A DNA stretch of 64,000 nucleotides from a virus (taxonomy: Duplodnaviria > Heunggongvirae > Uroviricota > Caudoviricetes). Within the stretch, counting starts at the first letter, position 1. Every line of letters begins with the position of its first letter. Shown here piece by piece: positions 1 through 56,300 of this stretch. Below the pieces are notes generated by a model that worked only from the letters and a program-made list of their open reading frames with translations, ran no database searches and was not told the DNA's origin. The translations under genes and the position numbers were made by a program. The stretch spans positions 79,646 through 143,645 of the IMG/VR virus record IMGVR_UViG_3300037454_000603; one strand, 5' to 3'.

Positions 1-838
1 TCTTAATTTTAACCCAAACAAGATTGTTGTTATTAACTTCAGAACCATCTATAACTTCAACTTTAGTCTTATAAGGGAGTGTTCCTTTTAACTCTCCATT
101 TGGAGTTGAACGATAGTTAAGTCCATCTTCATAATTTACATAGAAAGTTGAATAAGTAACTTTCTTTTCTTCTTCTTTGGGCTTAACTTCTTCTTTAGGC
201 TGTGCCGCAGCCTCAAAGTCTTTATAGAAATATGACATATCAATTCCATTTGTAAATCCGTTTACCTTATAAACAGAAGTAAATTGCCAAGCATCGTATG
301 TGTTAATAGAAGGTTTACTCTAAGCAGTACCATCATTTGTTCCATACTTTGCACACCAAATAGAATATTTTTTGATTTTATCAAAATCAATTTTATTATT
401 AAACCAATATTCGCTCATGTAAACACCTGGAACATAGCCAAGTTCTTTAATTCTTTCACAGAAAGCAACTGCAACTTCTGTCCAAGTAGCAGTAGTATTG
501 GCATCTGCACGTCCAGTCTTATTTGGGGCAGTACTTTCTTCTATATCAATATAAATTGGATAAGTAGGTTTAAAATTCTTAATTAAGCCATATGCGTAAT
601 CTGCCTCAGCTATAGCTTCTTCTTTATTCTTGGCCTAAGTAAAGAAATAAAAACCATATGGCTTCTTATTATCTTCCATTCCCTTAACGTGCTTATCAAG
701 CTAAGAGTCTTTACATAACGTGCCCGCGGAGCCATATCCACGATAACCAATTCTTATAATTGCTCCATCAATTTCTTGTGCCGCGGCAGCATAGTTAACA
801 TTGGTTTGAAATTGAGATATATCAATAATCTTCTTCAT
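1..838 (-). CDS. GH25 muramidase endolysin with C-terminal SH3-like region (runs off window edge; TAG=Gln)
   Basis: ATG at 838: MKKIIDISQFQ...IRIGYRGYG...YFFT(TAG)AKN...YIDIE. GH25 catalytic D and DxE are present; in-frame TAGs at 701-703 and 635-637, the latter at the conserved Q of YFFxQA; no TAA/TGA down to position 1. Confidence 0.88.
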
Positions 839-49166: not shown

Positions 49167-49904
49167 TTGGGAAAGATAAAATATGAAGAAGTAAAATCAG
49201 ATATTAATGATAGCGGTTGGCAATTAGCTTCAACCAAATATGTAAATCTTAAAACTGATTTAGAGTTAATTTGTCCTAATGGACACACCATTTATAAAAC
49301 ATATGGTGATTGGCGGGATGAAGAGCAACATCAGTGTCCAATTTGTATTAAACAGCCCTTCAAAAAAATTAGTGAAAGGGCCACAAAGAAAAAAGGATAT
49401 CGAATATTAGCCTTTGATTAGGCAAGTATTACAAGTGGTTGGAGTTTATTTGAAGATGGTAAATTAATAAATTATGGTAAATGGACTTCAAATGGAGAAA
49501 AAAATACTCAAAGAATTTCTTAGACTAAAGCTTGGGTGGCTTCTTTAATAGAAAGTCACCAACCTAATGAAGTTATTTTAGAAGATATACAATTATAGAA
49601 ATTTTCTTCTGAACAAGGTGGAGAAAGTGCCGCCGTAACAACTTATAAAAAGTTGGCTCATTTACAAGGCGTTTTAAAAAATTATTGCTACGAAAATGGT
49701 ATTCCTTATAAAATTGCTCCGCCTGCAACTTGGCGCTCATATTCTAATGTAAAAGGTAAAAGTAGAACAGATAGAAAACGAAGTGCTCAGCTTATAGTAA
49801 AAAATATTTACGATGTTGATGTAAGTGAAGATGAGGCAGATGCAATATTAATCGGCCGCTGGGCCGCGGCATAGTAGAAGAAAACAGAAATAATTATGTT
49901 TTAA
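49167..49904 (+). CDS. ruvC: RuvC-like Holliday-junction resolvase with N-terminal Zn ribbon (245 aa; TAG=Gln)
   Basis: CPNGH...CPIC; ILAFD(TAG)ASITSGW, ILEDI, LAHLQGV, DEADAILIG. Confidence 0.75.
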
Positions 49905-49955
49905 TAAGATAAAAAGAGCCTGACAATAGCCAAGCTCTTTATGATACCTCTATAA

Positions 49956-49992
49956 AAGAGCGAGTAGTATGTCCAGCTACTCGCTCTTTCTT
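49956..49992. terminator. bidirectional terminator between the replication arm and the minus-strand cassette
   Basis: AAAGAGCGAGTAG-TATGTCCAG-CTACTCGCTCTTT; a second weaker stem at about 49912-49940. Confidence 0.75.
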
Positions 49993-49993
49993 T

Positions 49994-50368
49994 TTATTTT
50001 ACTTTATAAATACACCAAATAAAACGGTCTGACGGATTAAATGTATCATAACAAATGCCATCTACTACTGCTGTAATATGCCCTGCCATAGTAACAAGCC
50101 ACCTTCCTTTTAAGTTCAAATCTAAAAAATCTTGAAGTGTTATTATTCTATTAAAGGTTTTCTAGCAATATCTTGAATAGCGATTTGCTAAATATTCATC
50201 AATAAATTCAATCTCAGAAAAAGTTATGCCTTCTTCTCGGCTAAAATTGGCAAGTTCCTTATAAGTCTCATCCCAACTTTTTTCAGTTGCGAGAGCAATT
50301 GCTCTAACACTGCAATCGTTGACATGTCGGCCAAAAGGATTGTTATTATAATATTTATAATGAATCAA
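49994..50368 (-). CDS. cassette gene 6: putative papain/C39-like Cys peptidase (124 aa; 1 TAG)
   Basis: NDCSVRAIA...W...GHITAVVDG..YDTF gives a Cys-His-Asp candidate triad. Confidence 0.55.
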
Positions 50369-50844
50369 ATCTTTTTTAATTTTTCAATATGTTTTCTTAT
50401 AACATCTTTTTCCTGAGAAGTTTCTGTATTATCCATCATATATTCAACAAAATTAACTAAGGCTCCCATAGCCATATCTACTCCATCAAGCATTTTTTCT
50501 TTGGACTAACCATCTCTATAACGATTTCTTCCTTCATTATAATTTAAAAGGCCTTCTTTAATTCGATTAAAATAACGTTCATCTCTCTCATTTAAAGGAT
50601 AGCTTTTATAATCATTATAATCTCTATAATCATGATTATCCCAATCTCTATAACGGCCTCTACTATCTCTTTCTCTTGCGCCGTAAGAATCTTCGCTATT
50701 AATTTGATCTTCATAATAACAAGCTTCCTTAATATCTTTATAAATATCAATTAATTTATAAGCAGTATCAAGATTGGAAGAAGTTATTCCTTTTTCTCCT
50801 ATGCTTTCAAGTTCTTTCTCGACTTTTCTTAAAAGTTCCTTCAT
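50365..50844 (-). CDS. cassette gene 5: helical protein with Y/R/D-rich low-complexity middle (159 aa)
   Basis: MKELLRKVEKELE...YKLIDIYKDI...RERDSRGRY...; TGATG overlap with gene 4. Confidence 0.7.
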
Positions 50845-51263
50845 CAACCTTCACCTCCTGAAGTATTTTGTGCGGCAGCCTCTATTGGTAAAGAGGGCGC
50901 CGCATTCTAATTACAACGGCAATTATAACAATTTAAGTTAGCTAAAAGTTTAAAAACTCCACTCTAAATATTAGTAAAAACTCTTGTAGCATAACGTGTT
51001 CTAGTAGTAATTTGGCTAGCATTAACATTTGTACAATTAGAATTTACTAATGGATACTAAACATCAGAAGCTCCTATTGTAATAGCGACCGTTGAAGCGA
51101 TAGTTGTTTCTGTTGGAATGTCTTGAGCAACAACTATACAATACTTTTCTTTATTTTCATAAGCTTGTTGAGGAAGATTAATTATTAAAACTCCATCAGT
51201 AAAAGTTACGGCTTGAGAAAAAACTAAATGACTACACAAACATCCTATATCTTTACAAGCCAT
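50844..51263 (-). CDS. cassette gene 4: Cys-flanked beta-rich protein (139 aa; 3 TAG)
   Basis: MACKDIGCLCSHLVFSQAV...CIVVAQDIP...YPLVNSNC...TRTRYATRV. Confidence 0.7.
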
Positions 51264-51275
51264 TTAAATCACCTA

Positions 51276-52115
51276 TCAAAAATTACCGCAGCCGCAACCA
51301 TTTACGCCATTATAGCCTAAAGATTGATAAGGTGAATTAGTAATATATGCAGGACGGCTAATAGGCTGAAGTGCGCCAAGAAGCTGCTCAGTTTGAGCTG
51401 CCTAAGAAATTTGGAACTTAGCATTTTGAAGCTCTGTTCTGAGGTTATCCATCTCTTTTTGGTTCATATAATCAATAAGTCTATCACCAAGTTTATCAAT
51501 ACCAACCATAGTTTGTGCTTGATTCTGAGCCATTAAATATTTAATGTCATCTTGTCCACGTTCAATGTCACAAGCATTAGTTGCAATAGCAGTAGAAACA
51601 TTATTAAATCCTGCCTGATTGTTAAAATTAGATTGCATTATAGCTTCTCTATTTTCACAGCAGCATTGAGCTCTCTAATAGTCACTATTAGCAATTGCAG
51701 ACTGAATAGAATTGAAACCATTGCACAGAGTACTCTAAACAGTATTAAAACCTTGCATTGTATTCATATTTGAATTAGCAAAGCTTGTCTAAATAGCTGT
51801 TCCCAAATTTGTTGTAGCTAAATTATTCTGATAGAAACCATCTACAACAGAATCATGAGTTGAAGTTATTCCCTAATTGAGAGAGCTGAAATTAAAAGCG
51901 TCAGAAACGCCCTAAGCGGTAGCAGGAGTGCAACAAGGACTGAAATTATTATTGCCAAAGTTTCCTCCCCACATACCATTGCCGCCCCAACCAAAGAAGA
52001 GAACAAGAAGAATAATCCACCACAATCCTCCTCCATTGCCGAAGCCATCGTTATCACCAGTTCCTCTAGCGAGAGCTAAAGCATCTGCGATACTTAAACC
52101 TTTGTTTTCGTCCAT
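51276..52115 (-). CDS. cassette gene 3: Gly/Asn-rich TM leader plus N/Q/S-rich helical repeats, CCC motif and C-terminal CGCG (279 aa; 6 TAG)
   Basis: GGAGG RBS; GGLWWIILLVLFFGWGGNG...AQCCCEI...NGCGCGNF; joins two track ORFs. Confidence 0.75.
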
Positions 52116-52155
52116 TTTTATGATACCTCCAATAATTTATTTCACGCTTTGCAAA

Positions 52156-52386
52156 TTATTTTAAAAGCTACATAAAATTATTGAACTCATTGTCCAGATT
52201 GAGTCCACGAGCCTAAAACATCTGCTAAGCGAGATTAACTAATTGCTAAGAGTCTCCATTCTAAGCATACTCAATTAAAGCCATAATATTTGGATTATTA
52301 ATATTATTATTTTTAATTGCTGATAAAACGACCTCCTTTGGATCTCGGCCTCGCATAAGCTATGCTATTACCATTAAATTATTCAT
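52156..52386 (-). CDS. cassette gene 2: small N/Q/M-rich helical protein (76 aa; 6 TAG)
   Basis: GGAGG RBS, ATGA overlap; MNNLMVIAQLMRGRDP...QQLVNLAQQMF; absent from the code-11 track. Confidence 0.7.
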
Positions 52387-52826
52387 ATATCAAAGCCTCC
52401 CCTATCTTTATTTAAAGCTTTAAACTATTCTTCTAAAGTATTAATTTTAGTATTACAGGTCTCAACCTGCGCCGCGAGAGCTTTAAAAGGCTCATCCTCC
52501 ACCGATGGTGCCGCGGCACAAGACTCTTGAGCTTTCTACTCGCTATTTGTAAAAGGAAGAATTTTATATGGATAAAATAAGGGATTTCCATTCTACATTG
52601 TTTTAATATACATCACATTTTCTGGTAGACATAGCGCCACCGAAATTCCTGCTCCAACAGGTACATTCGCAACTTCAAGAGTTGAGTTAATATTATAAAC
52701 GTTTCCTGAAGGTTGAGGAAATAGTGGCTAAACATTTTGATTTAAAATTTGTGGGTTAAATTGCTAAACCTATGAGGGCTAAGGTTGCGGCATATTAACC
52801 TAATTAGCATTATATCCAATTGGCAT
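52383..52826 (-). CDS. cassette gene 1: Q/P/N-rich N-terminus plus globular and coiled-coil parts (147 aa; 8 TAG)
   Basis: GAGGTG RBS; MPIGYNANQVNMPQPQPSQVQQFNPQ...MYIKTMQNGNP; absent from the code-11 track. Confidence 0.7.
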
Positions 52827-52924
52827 TTATTTCACCTCTTTATTTGTTCTACTTTAAAGTAGCAAAGTATTAATATAATAAAAATAATGAAAAAAGAAAA
52901 GAAAAATTTTCTCTTTTTAAAACA

Positions 52925-52956
52925 AAAAGAAGGACGTCACAAGACGTCCTTCTTTC
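52925..52956 (-). terminator. rho-independent terminator ending the tail operon
   Basis: AAAGAAGGACGTC-ACAA-GACGTCCTTCTTT stem, T tract on the minus strand. Confidence 0.75.
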
Positions 52957-53331
52957 TTATTTTATACAAAAATAAAATTCTTCAAGTTCACTTAATGTTA
53001 AATCCAAAGACGTTAATTCGTCTAAAGAAAAATAAATGTCGGGCAAAGTAATCTCTAAATCGTTAATAGATTTCAAATATTGATTACATTCTTCAAGGGA
53101 TTCTGCTTTAATTTTTACTCCACCATCTTCTGAATAAATAAAGTTACCATTGCTATCTGTTTCAAAAAACTAAGATAAAGATTCTAGCTGCTCATTTAAT
53201 ATTTCTATTTCTGGCTATAAAGCTTTTTTTAATTTAATTAGTTTATACTAGGTCTAAATGTCAAAATTTTTATTTGAATTTCGTTCAATTACCGCTAATA
53301 AATCTTTTATTTTACCTCTCTGTATTAGCAT
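52957..53331 (-). CDS. hypothetical tail-associated protein (124 aa; 4 TAG)
   Basis: ATG 53331 just after the stop of the large tail gene; open to TAA 52957. Confidence 0.6.
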
Positions 53332-53332
53332 A

Positions 53333-56300
53333 TTATACCCCCGATTCATCCGTCATATTATCTTCCAAAATATACCATTCTGAACCAAAACGACCTAAAA
53401 AGTCATTTAATCTTAAAAGCAAGGTCTTTAAATTATCATTGCCGCTAGGCCATAATGTATTTAATTCATTGGATAAACTGTTCTAATTTACGTGCCAATT
53501 ATCTAACTAAGTACAGTTTAAGTTATGTTTGTGATTTAAATTTCTAATTTCAGATTCTGTTTGTGAAGAAGCATCAGATACATAGTCTATTAAAGACCTT
53601 CCATCAGTATGACGAACATGTTCAAAATCTATTTGTAAAACCCTATTTACATAACTTAAACCAGCATTTGCAACTTTGTCTTTGTCATCTCCAGAAGGTG
53701 GTGTGTACGTACCTCCAAGATATAAATCTCCATTTTTATGGACAGTAAGAATATTATCGTAACCATTATTTGCTTTTTGAACGGAGATAGAAAAAACTCT
53801 ATTATAGCCTTCAGAGTTTGTATTATTTAAATAAATCTAACAATGACCCTCACTTTTCTATTCAGAGTCTCCTGAAGTTTGTTTTGTTCCGTAATAACTA
53901 TTATTTATTTCGTAAATATAAATTGATTTTATACGATGATTTGGCTCCTCACAATAACGTTTTTTACTTGACACACTTTCATTAGAATAATAATCGCTTC
54001 CTTGACCACTGACTGCATAAATAGTTTCAGTTTTTTGAGTTACTAAATAATAATTATTGCCTACCTTACCTTTTCTTACTCCACTTTCAGTAAAGAAATA
54101 AACAGCACCATACATCATATGGTCAAAATCTGTAGTTGTAAAATAAACATCTTGTGGGGAAGACGGTAATGATGGAGTATTGTAATATTCTATTTTCTTC
54201 AACTCATAATAAGTTAGTTGATATGGAAATAATTGATTTGAATATTTATATTCATATGTTGTGTCATCCCATTCACCACTAACTCCTGAAACGTGGATTT
54301 CTCCTGTTAAATTTAATCTCGCACTTTCTTCGTTACTTGCACTCTTAGTGGTAGAAAAAATTGCTTTACCATTATTATCATACAAATAGAAACCTACTTC
54401 CTCTCCCTAGTTATCTCCATTTAATGCATATCCTGCACGAAGTCTAACTTTTCCATCTTCAACAACGGACAAGCCCAATCTGTTATATAAGACATAATCA
54501 GAACGAGAACCACTACTTGAAGGATCTCTATATGCATAGATGCCATCTTTATCCCAAGCAAAATAAATATAACTACTATCAGCTATTCTTATTTTTCCTG
54601 CATCGAGCGTACCTACTTTAATGTAATCAGCATTAATGCCGTTTGGTCCAACACCTACATTCCAATGTGCGCCGCCATCATTAGAGAAAAATAAGCCCTA
54701 ACCATTTAATTTATATTTGTTAGCATGATTATTTATATCGCTACCAGACGTTCCAGTATTGTCAACTTTAATGTTATTTTCATCAGTATTTAATAAAGTT
54801 AAATCATTAGCGTCTAAAGTACCCTATAAGCTATCTTTTTCTACATTATGTAAGGAAGTAAAATTAGATGAGCGTTTATAAATATTTTCATTGTAGGTTA
54901 ATGACTAAACTGCCGCGGTAACTTGCTAGAACAAATCTTCAAACTGGGTCGTAAAATCTTGAACTTTAATTGCATTTTTAGAAGGCTCATCTAAGTCATA
55001 TTCTATTTCAGAAATTATAACTTTAAGCTTATTAGGAAGTCCCGTTCTTTTATTAATACCAAACATTCCTATATCTTCAATATAAGTAGTATCTGCAATA
55101 TTAAAAGTATAATCATCTTTATATTCTGATAAAGCGGCTAAATCTACTACAGAAATATTATAAGAGACTTTTGGAATTGCCCCTTCGGCGGCAACGTCTA
55201 AAGCTCCAAAATAATAAGCATTATCACTAATAAAATTACTATCAGACCAAGTTCCTTCTTTAAGATACGGCTCATATTTTTTAAAGAAAGCTGAAGAGAT
55301 ATTATTGATTTCTTTAAGGTAACTCGCTCTTTCTTTTTTCCATCTCTAGATTTGTTTAAATTCGGTATTAAACTAGCCTAAAATACCTTCCGTATAAGAA
55401 TGGCCATCTACCCATTTTTCTTTTAAATAAAGATAATTATCCTAAATTAATTCAAACCATTTCATAGGATTATTTTTAACACTATTTATTTCCTATTCAG
55501 TATAACCAGTATAATCACTATAATATAATTCAAATTGTTCTGCCGCAGTACCATTTGTAAAAAAAGTATCCTCTATCAGCTATTTTAAAATACCTCTCTA
55601 TTCACTTAATTTAATTTTCTAATTTTGATAAGCTTTGTTATTATCCAAATCTTCTGTTACTCCTCTATAATTATTCATTCTTTTAAGAATTTTTTGAATT
55701 TGCTATAAAGAAGTATCAATACCTTCTAAGTTAACAGTTAAATTTGCCTGAAGTTCATTATAAGAAGCATCTTGTAAATTAATTATTTTATTACTGATTT
55801 CATCATACTAAGTATTATAATAGCCTAACTATTTTAAGTAGCCTTGCGGAATATTGTTATTATTCTAATTAGTAATTCCCCATAAATCTTCTTCAACTTC
55901 TCTTTCATTTAAAATTCCTTTTTTAAGGTAATAAGAAAAATCTATAATAAAGCTATCTTTAGTAGGATTATCTTCCGCCGTTTTAATAGAACATAAACCA
56001 GTCTTAGATATTTCACTATCAACATCGTTCACATATAACTTAGTAACTATTTTATCACTATCTATATTTCTGCTGATATTAGATAAGTTTTTCTCATATC
56101 TAAAACCGAGTTTATTTTCCATTCCTTTTTCAGTCATGAAGAATAACTCTTTTTTTGGAATTCCGTTTTCTGTTAAAACTATTCCATTATCTAAATGAGT
56201 AATATTAAAAATAGGATAGCATTCAAATACTTTGCTAATTTCCTAAACTAAATTAAATCTATTAGATTTTTCTCCTTTTAGTGTTCTTACTTTACGACAA

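Follow-up and report, generated by a model that had tools for sequence, protein, structure and literature searches.

In the phage catalogues, proteins related to those described here are recorded as PHROGs and as DUF7841 (PF25223), entries that carry no function. Among characterized phage membrane proteins, T4 holin T and the lambda i-spanin Rz each have a single N-terminal membrane helix together with a large, Cys-containing, partly coiled-coil domain. The present study concerns six adjacent genes, designated g1 to g6, at positions 49994 to 52826 (minus strand) of a 64,000-nucleotide stretch of viral DNA (the window; positions 79,646 to 143,645 of IMG/VR record IMGVR_UViG_3300037454_000603), which is part of a single 178,943-bp phage contig. 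We conclude that these genes form a widespread, optional late-gene cassette in phages of anaerobic gut bacteria, and that the cassette is known only from the catalogue entries named above. TAG-recoded gut phages of Clostridia have been treated in general terms (PMC10607447). The phage papers that we retrieved do not discuss the cassette genes, and in the searchable literature no paper names DUF7841 and nothing was found on function for the CPD1-type phages, which carry part of the cassette.

Six genes recovered by reading TAG as glutamine

Throughout the analysis, TAG was read as glutamine. Translated in this way, the minus strand from 49994 to 52826 yielded six closely spaced genes, with 25 in-frame TAG codons across them:

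52826-52383, minus strand: g1, 147 aa, 8 TAG codons
52386-52156, minus strand: g2, 76 aa, 6 TAG codons
52115-51276, minus strand: g3, 279 aa, 6 TAG codons
51263-50844, minus strand: g4, 139 aa, 3 TAG codons
50847-50365, minus strand: g5, 160 aa, 1 TAG codon; the probable start is the ATG at 50844
50368-49994, minus strand: g6, 124 aa, 1 TAG codon

With translation table 11, only fragments were obtained over this region, and g1 and g2 were lost, as an earlier reading of the DNA (the sequence-only reading) had stated; a 31-aa remnant at 52261 to 52356 is all that table 11 leaves of them. Standard gene calling misses late genes of a recoded phage in this way, two of the six cassette genes having vanished here. 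The junctions are tight: an ATGA overlap joins g1 to g2, a TGATG overlap joins the g4 stop to the g5 ATG at 50844, and a TTGA overlap joins g5 to g6, while the 40 nucleotides (nt) between g2 and g3 and the 12 nt between g3 and g4 both include a GGAGG-type ribosome-binding site. Residue counts of g1 to g4 agreed with the N/Q-rich and Cys-rich compositions that had been claimed for them: N, Q, and P make up 32% of g1, N and Q make up 29% of g2, and g3 and g4 contain 9 and 8 cysteines, respectively. All six frames are kept in many other contigs at 40 to 74% amino acid identity, and among these relatives the loci L009 to L011 carry the cassette genes without any TAG. Since the frames are retained in TAG-free relatives, the comparison indicates that g1 to g6 are real genes and not an artefact of recoding. 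The cassette is present once in its own genome.

Upstream (5') of the cassette lie a tape-measure-sized gene, a Dit gene, and a gene for a 1866-aa minor tail protein. Reading TAG as glutamine makes these tail genes whole, the minor tail protein gene alone containing 32 TAG codons. TAG density is 2.7% in the cassette and 1.5 to 3.1% in the tail genes; the polymerase and gyrase genes are TAG-free, and the replication genes of the opposite strand are almost without TAG. The sequence-only reading took TAG density as a sign of late expression, and indeed the cassette resembles the tail genes and is unlike the TAG-free polymerase and gyrase genes. In other phages, the cassette is part of late operons and follows their tail, lysis, or capsid genes. 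This position, together with a TAG density like that of the tail genes, suggests that the cassette is expressed late. Of the words sampled from 49900 to 53400, a fraction of 0.61 was found in one bovine-gut metatranscriptome run (X2), and all were found in a bovine-gut DNA run. These matches suggest that the phage comes from the rumen or bovine gut and that the region may be transcribed, although such word sharing falls short of showing expression.

Distribution and genomic setting of the cassette

Scanning IMG/VR with a g3 pattern gave 20 loci, and in 16 to 17 of them all six genes were present in the same order; the g1-to-g6 order is shared by about 16 to 19 related large phage contigs. Scanning with a g4 alignment gave at least 570 viral loci. 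When gene patterns were profiled in the best 80 of these, 48 had g2-g3-g4, 16 had all six genes, 9 had g3-g4, and 7 had other partial sets. The identity of g4 stays at 50 to 60% across very different phages. A g4 profile also detected 99 loci in bacterial genomes, mostly of Oscillospiraceae, Ruminococcaceae, Lachnospiraceae, and Christensenellales; the complete genome of Anaerotruncus colihominis DSM 17241 is among them. As judged from these gene patterns, the conserved core of the cassette is g3-g4, usually together with g2. The synteny search therefore found the genes together elsewhere, so that a failure to co-occur cannot be held against the self-contained six-gene unit that had been proposed.

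The sequence-only reading had also placed similar blocks in Clostridia phages, and this proved correct for the Clostridium perfringens phages CPD1 and PMQ04, which carry g1-like, g2-like, g3, and g4 genes (g3 with a tblastn E value of 5e-13 and g4 with 50 bits). The g1-like gene scores 79 bits against a profile of the g1 position, and the g2-like gene (CPD1 gp037) gives a weak match of 13 bits. Further relatives of g3 were found in Bacteroides phage C3_41T2LP and in the crAss-like phage cr53_1 (gp66; E value of 1e-5). The cr53_1 relative is preceded by a gene for a DUF7841 protein with an R/G/Y-rich tail, which scores 81 bits against the g5-position profile, and is followed by a gene that matches g4 weakly, with 8 bits. 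The cr53_1 record (locus L003, NC_055889.1 36032-46628) has in-frame TAG codons in its annotated holin, LysB-like, g3-like, and neighboring genes and is therefore also TAG-recoded. The annotation of the g3 relative as "spike protein/glycoprotein" and of the DUF7841 protein as "sigma factor/ubiquitin-like" seems to read too much into weak matches.

The setting of the cassette was recorded for several carriers. Here and in Dulem virus 36, it follows tail genes (in the latter, the receptor-binding protein gene). It lies between endolysin and RuvC genes in the Anaerotruncus prophage, 3' of amidase and holin genes and among non-structural genes in CPD1, directly 3' of the major capsid gene in a Blautia prophage, between portal and capsid genes in PQ006093, and beside recombination genes in C3_41T2LP.

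Extra DNA was observed in or next to some copies. In CPD1, gp038 (L002 4092-4715), which encodes a 207-aa Cys/His-rich candidate homing-type HNH endonuclease, lies between the g2-like gene and g3; PMQ04 is without a gene of this type at that place. About 1.1 kb of additional DNA separates cassette genes in L009 (6843-7969) and L034 (713-1823), and on a contig of GCA_024712465.1 an IS1595-family transposase gene sits just 5' of g1.

Dispensability among close relatives

Presence of the cassette was surveyed in 30 relatives anchored on the neighboring RuvC gene. It was present in 19 of the 30, nine had no cassette gene within the fetched flank (three of these at contig ends), and only remnants were found in L206 and L201. 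Two pairs of relatives, with flanks that are 92 to 97% identical, differ by deletions. Comparison of L190 with L191 (IMG/VR 3300045988_159916 and 3300045988_144255; flanks 94 to 97% identical) revealed a clean 2.9-kb deletion, with 12 bp shared at its junction, that takes out g1 to g5 and most of g6. Comparison of L206 with L203 (3300045988_151663 and 3300045988_142677) revealed a 1.85-kb deletion from g2 into g5, with 7 bp shared at the junction. Because the cassette or its core is cleanly deleted in near-identical relatives, these comparisons indicate that the cassette is accessory and not essential. It tolerates insertions and behaves as a mobile accessory unit. Its predicted transcription signals of its own, its variable position, and its presence or absence among close relatives are likewise those expected of a phage moron or accessory cassette.

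The genome appears to encode its lysis functions elsewhere. A 108-aa protein with three hydrophobic helices, resembling a classical holin, is predicted at genome positions 77426 to 77752, outside the window, and a 453-aa endolysin-like gene, with an N terminus similar to GH25 muramidases, ends at window positions 1 to 838 (minus strand). This putative pair spans genome positions 77426 to 80483, 49 kb from the cassette. Since a three-helix holin-like gene and an endolysin-like gene sit there, the cassette is probably not the lysis system of the phage. As a holin candidate, g3 has no adjacent endolysin gene and belongs to a cassette that near-identical relatives have deleted; as a candidate two-component spanin, it is found in carriers of monoderm Clostridia and is accompanied in the cassette by no lipobox protein.

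Predicted properties of the encoded proteins

None of g1 to g6 scored above the Pfam, NCBIfam, or PADLOC thresholds. Direct membership in PHROGs was found for g1 (phrog_21718; E value of 7e-5), g3 (phrog_16490; 1e-23), g5 (phrog_28802; 1.5e-13), and g6 (phrog_3754, 6e-22, and also phrog_15863). DUF7841 was found in the gene after g4 at other loci (E values of 4e-21 to 2e-33), where it occupies the g5 position. Searching the PDB with profiles of g1 to g6 yielded nothing beyond coiled-coil noise (HA2, GCN4, C/EBP, and apolipophorin), and a nucleotide search of the cassette against GenBank phages gave no match.

Structure models of g4 and g6 were made from the TAG-free L010 orthologues, which are 55% and 60% identical, respectively. 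In g6, Cys19, His97, and Asp108 were invariant in 11 and also in 24 orthologues. The g6 orthologue was modeled with a mean predicted local distance difference test score (pLDDT) of 88.6, with a helix (residues 17 to 26) that opens at the Cys and strands (residues 85 to 118) that bear the His and the Asp. AFDB clusters were matched at E values of 3e-8 to 1e-5, several of them labeled "Peptidase C39 domain," and in a VIA-wide fold search (Z scores of 6.3 to 5.2) nearly all of the top 50 matches were papain-like cysteine peptidases or amidases. The PDB neighbors included the C39-like domain 3b79 (Z score of 6.1), PCAT1 (6.1), and the pseudomurein endoisopeptidase PeiR (6.0), as well as staphopains, AvrPphB, and Josephin-type deubiquitinases. 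The invariant triad and the papain-like fold of the orthologue model uphold the earlier proposal of a Cys-His-Asp peptidase candidate. On the strength of this model, g6 is a predicted clan CA papain-like (C39-like) cysteine peptidase; it is assigned to the clan and not to the C39 family because Pfam C39 gave no match at E values up to 1 and because no conserved double-glycine leader was found.

The g6 profile had 2,395 representatives in 1.8 billion proteins, which points to a large unnamed family, and ten longer proteins that matched the profile contained no Pfam domain. At other loci, peptidases of different types were observed: a protein with an HExxH motif follows the g5-like gene in L068, and a PolyVal metallopeptidase is encoded four genes after g3 in C3_41T2LP. 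The module thus seems to include a peptidase, though not always one of the same type.

In g4, a beta-sandwich core (approximately residues 11 to 107) lies between Cys-rich tails of the forms MxCxxxxCLC... and ...NCxxCxC. The orthologue model (pLDDT of 80.7) was confident for the sandwich and of low confidence for the Cys tails. The top solved match was a baseplate/tail-fibre chain of Pseudomonas phage Pa193, 9b45_2 (Z score of 5.1; root mean square deviation [rmsd] of 3.3 over 90 residues), the next having a Z score of 3.4. In AFDB and BFVD, dozens of tail-fibre, collagen-fibre, and tailspike proteins contained a domain of the g4 type (template modeling [TM] scores of 0.45 to 0.5), consistent with a fibre-type beta-sandwich fold for the modeled core. 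A g4-like sandwich (TM score of 0.55; rmsd of 1.9) is also present in a 294-aa BFVD entry, a crAss-like "DUF7841 domain-containing protein," which provides a fusion-type link between the g4 and g5 positions. No Ena, Cot, BclA, or C1q entry was listed for g4 from Pfam, PDB, AFDB, or BFVD, an absence that leaves such a fold possible, and no longer fusion proteins of g4 were found in the search, which is weak evidence.

Alignments of 17 and 26 members of the g3 family gave a constant order of segments. An acidic N-terminal tail is followed by a Gly/Asn-rich linker, a hydrophobic stretch of 12 to 15 residues with Gly flanks, and a Gly-rich stretch; then come N/Q-rich repeats of the GFNxV type, variable in number, a CCC motif, a heptad-like segment (LRxELQxAxxQLSQ), PxPxPAY..SPY, and a terminal GCGC. 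In g3 itself these take the form of a GLS(I/V)ADALAL motif, an LWWIILLVLFF helix, CCC at residues 151 to 153, a coiled-coil segment, and a terminal GCGCG. The GLSVADALAL-type motif of the N-tail is found in the Clostridia clade, while the CCC and the C-terminal Cys are invariant across the family alignments. The Gly-rich membrane segment and Cys clusters noted from the sequence were therefore confirmed as a Gly-flanked hydrophobic anchor with conserved cysteines. From a large protein collection, 1,270 homologues of g3 were retrieved, not one of which had an informative name or a Pfam domain, and a protein atlas queried with a g3 relative returned only viral hypotheticals.

Over 27 members, the hydrophobic 13-mer of g3 had Kyte-Doolittle values of 1.8 to 3.4, the N-tails summed to 29 K/R and 106 D/E, and the 30 residues after the helix were near neutral. 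Judged from these charges, the positive-inside rule leaves the topology unfixed. We favor an orientation with the N terminus outside and the stalk inside, because the acidic 30-residue N-tail appears translocatable and because the other five proteins have no export signal. Two further claims found no support. Disulfide linkage had been expected, but signal peptides are absent from all six proteins, and the acidic N-tail of g3 is no less compatible with a C-terminal domain in the cytoplasm; were that domain cytoplasmic, the Cys clusters would bind metal and not form disulfides. The other claim was cleavage of g3 by g6; the "ALAL...G" stretch of g3 is not a conserved double-glycine leader. As a double-glycine leader substrate of g6, the g3 N terminus was rejected, the residues after ALAL being variable.

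The remaining proteins are of low complexity in part or throughout. A Q/P/N-rich N terminus, a core of about 60 aa (QPLFPQPQGNVYNINSTLEVANVPVGAGISVALCL..MYIKTMQNGNP), and a coiled-coil-like C-terminal tail make up g1, and the core is nearly invariant within the large-phage clade. In distant phages, the gene 5' of g2 always encodes a Q/P/Y/N-rich N terminus, a "V.S.EEA...DG....IY.K" core, and a coiled-coil tail; g1 itself is linked to this wider g1-position set weakly, at 12 bits. The small, helical, N/Q/M-rich g2 has no Cys, and a hidden Markov model of g2 placed a homologue next to g3 in 48 plus 16 of the best 80 loci. Its composition resembles that of Met/Gln-rich domains that hold hydrophobic helices. 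The g5 protein is helical toward both termini and has a low-complexity middle rich in R, Y, and D, and its position elsewhere is taken by a helix-RGRY-helix protein or by an R/D/Y-rich region fused to DUF7841. From these comparisons, g1 and g5 appear to be conserved as positions and architectures. Other than PHROGs of unassigned function, no database match was obtained for g1, g2, or g5.

Boundaries and upstream signals

The following signals were identified around the cassette:

52926-52955, minus strand: terminator hairpin with a 13-bp stem, 6 GC pairs, and T runs on both sides
52895-52925, minus strand: upstream motif TTTTTGTTTTAAAAAGAGAAAATTTTTC; consensus in relatives, TTTTTGTTTAAAAnrTAGAAnTTTTTC
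52849-52862, minus strand: 14-nt palindrome CTACTTTAAAGTAG with 7-nt arms, just 5' of the g1 ribosome-binding site
52833-52839, minus strand: g1 ribosome-binding site AGAGGTG
49955-49989 and 49913-49940: two back-to-back terminator hairpins, the 3' boundary of the cassette

The hairpin at 52926 to 52955 ends an upstream 130-aa gene and the tail operon and forms the 5' boundary of the cassette, and the hairpins at 49913 to 49989 separate g6 from a convergent RuvC-like resolvase gene (49167-49904, plus strand). In all, five terminator-like sites were found in 3.7 kb, versus 1.6 expected. The gene junctions, the hairpins, and the upstream tail genes all agree with the earlier description of six coupled genes between terminators, 3' of the tail operon.

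The upstream motif occurs 70 to 100 nt 5' of g1 in 11 related loci, in several relatives within a longer hairpin, and an equivalent small inverted repeat is present at the place of the palindrome in relatives (for example, TTCTTAC-N8-GTAAGAA in L008). The motif and the palindrome could serve the cassette as its promoter or operator. The motif was rejected as a general late promoter: a regular-expression scan of the genome gave 7 matches, versus 1.9 in shuffled sequence, and of the 7, three were overlapping duplicates and none lay at another late operon.

The 130-aa gene (52957-53349, minus strand) contains 4 TAG codons, lies between the gene of the 1866-aa tail protein and the cassette, and matches phrog_1401 (function not assigned; E value of 3e-6). 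In the corresponding region of one relative, a 429-aa Peptidase_M23 protein follows the tail protein.

A possible role for the cassette and its rivals

We tentatively propose, as a reading that stands somewhat short of probable, that the cassette encodes a late, membrane-anchored stalk-and-knob complex with low-complexity helpers and a dedicated protease. In this proposal, g3 would be held in the host cytoplasmic membrane by its one short, Gly-flanked helix near the N terminus. Late in infection it would insert with the acidic N-tail outside and the N/Q-rich, partly coiled-coil stalk in the cytoplasm, and g4 and the low-complexity proteins g1, g2, and g5 would assemble on that stalk. The Cys clusters would join the parts, via metal inside the cell or via disulfides after lysis; g2 might be a holdase that protects the hydrophobic g3 head, and the g6 peptidase would trim one component of the cassette. 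Such a complex would not be needed for basic propagation and would most likely tune a late step at the envelope or membrane. Doubtful in its full extent, but worth stating, is the wider reading that this is an undescribed phage-made structure of the host membrane, in which a Cys- or metal-stapled helical g3 stalk and a fibre-type g4 knob, within a disordered matrix of prion-like (Q/N/P) and Arg/Tyr-rich proteins, are matured by the cassette's own protease and are shared by phages of Firmicutes and Bacteroidota for a late envelope step such as virion release, particle tethering, or wall control.

Several points weigh against the stalk-and-knob proposal. Five of the six proteins are without a characterized homologue, and the reading rests on computation. 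The topology of g3 is taken from charge counts, and since the flank on the C-terminal side has no positive bias, the stalk might also point outward; the stalk itself is predicted from composition, repeats, and weak coiled-coil-type profile matches. The g4 fold matches are modest (a Z score of 5.1 and TM scores of 0.45 to 0.5) and would speak for a shared fold, not a shared function. The links of g1 and g5 to their distant positional counterparts appear weak (12 bits) or not significant.

Much of the same evidence would also suit a nonessential fibre or whisker that g3 and g4, with their helpers, form on the virion (capsid, neck, or tail), in the manner of phi29 head fibres, T4 Hoc and fibritin, or the lambda side tail fibres; in that case, the Gly-rich hydrophobic part of g3 would be buried in the particle or touch the host membrane. 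The likeness of g4 to domains of tail fibres, collagen-like fibres, and tailspikes would be explained, as would the late expression suggested by TAG density and the dispensability of the cassette, which decorations share. Moreover, the cassette stands within structural operons in PQ006093 (portal and capsid), in the Blautia prophage (after the capsid gene), and in Dulem virus 36. However, the CPD1 copy follows lysis genes among non-structural genes, the C3_41T2LP copy lies beside recombination genes, and here the cassette is a terminator-bounded unit of its own, while a membrane-type helix, prion-like and R/Y-rich partners, and a dedicated peptidase would be unusual for a decoration. We regard such a virion decoration as unlikely, though one to be kept in view. 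Proximity to lysis genes in some carriers raises the different idea of a module for lysis timing or the envelope, in which g3 would act like a class III (T4 T-type) holin or an i-spanin, the small partners would regulate it, and g6 would be a second wall-cutting peptidase. The build of g3 resembles that of T4 holin T and lambda Rz, the cassette follows an endolysin gene in the Anaerotruncus prophage and amidase and holin genes in CPD1, the cr53_1 relative follows annotated holin and LysB-like genes, and the papain-fold neighbors of g6 include the wall amidases PeiR, Tae3, Tae4, and Tse1. This idea is nevertheless quite improbable: the phage already has a three-helix holin-like gene beside an endolysin-like gene, the carriers have both monoderm and diderm hosts, so that g3 cannot be a spanin, the cassette is often far from lysis genes, natural deletion variants occur, and the fold search ranked C39 peptidases and enzymes of the deubiquitinase type at the top for g6, rather than NlpC/P60 or CHAP lysins.

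With the stalk turned outward on an infected or lysogenic cell, g3 might instead block receptors or incoming DNA, much as the lactococcal Sie proteins or T5 Llp do, protecting the cell from superinfection or keeping progeny off debris. A membrane-anchored protein with a variable number of repeats would suit exclusion or surface masking of this kind, as would an accessory, mobile cassette in a moron-like position next to lysis genes. Yet TAG-rich genes in a recoded phage of lytic type point to late and not to early or lysogenic expression, five of the six proteins are without an export signal, and g3-g4 is highly conserved (g4 at 50 to 60%), whereas receptor-directed proteins usually diverge fast; we give this role only a slight chance. 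Slighter still, and very improbable, is the disulfide-cross-linked, spore-coat-like layer, or alternatively the condensate of N/Q-rich and R/Y-rich proteins, that the sequence-only reading had entertained. It draws on the N/Q-rich g1 and g2, the R/Y/D-rich g5, the Cys-rich g3 and g4, and the many Clostridia among the carriers. Against a condensate or coat, disulfides are unlikely to form before lysis in anaerobic hosts with proteins that lack export signals. The spore-coat-like layer, the exclusion pore, and the condensate of the sequence-only reading found no support; Bacteroidota phages also carry the cassette, and the fold lists contain no Ena, Cot, or BclA-type match to g4.

Whichever role applies, a module of five to six genes has kept its order across hundreds of gut phage genomes, in carriers that range from 30-kb temperate Clostridia phages to stop-codon-recoded phages of 180 kb, and crAss-like phages contain parts of it; its core proteins have no assigned function or characterized homologue. 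Its strong conservation (g4 at 50 to 60%) yet dispensability suggests an accessory role that matters under gut conditions rather than in laboratory culture. The cultured carriers, namely the CPD1-type C. perfringens phages and Bacteroides phage C3_41T2LP, make the function directly testable.

Comparison with known systems

Like the C39 domains of PCAT1 and ComA, g6 is predicted to have the papain-like fold and the Cys...His...Asp order (3b79, 7s5j, 6mpz, and 5xe8; Z scores of 5.2 to 6.1). Unlike them, it is a free-standing protein of 124 aa with no ABC transporter, and the cassette proteins have no conserved double-glycine leader; its Z scores to C39 domains are modest and equal those to deubiquitinases, staphopain, and PeiR. 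The C-terminal domain of Pa193 9b45 chain 2 (residues 245 to 340) superposes on the modeled g4 core at 3.3 A over 90 residues. In contrast to tail-fibre domains, with which its identity is 7 to 20%, g4 stands alone as a 139-aa protein with Cys-rich tails and no shaft. T4 holin T and lambda Rz share the overall build of g3 and show no sequence or profile similarity to it; unlike either, the g3 cassette occurs in monoderm hosts, accompanies a separate holin-like gene, and is dispensable. A further likeness in architecture is found in coliphage T5. There, T5.077 has an ECCCE motif, a hydrophobic segment rich in Gly, and a long stretch rich in Q, N, and A. The likeness to g3 is one of architecture only, since the g3 profile scores 10.8 bits on T5.077 with a bias of 30.7. 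Its neighbors are a Q/M/P-rich protein (T5.078) and a Cys-rich protein (T5.079), and T5.077 to T5.079 together form a unit with its own promoter and terminator.

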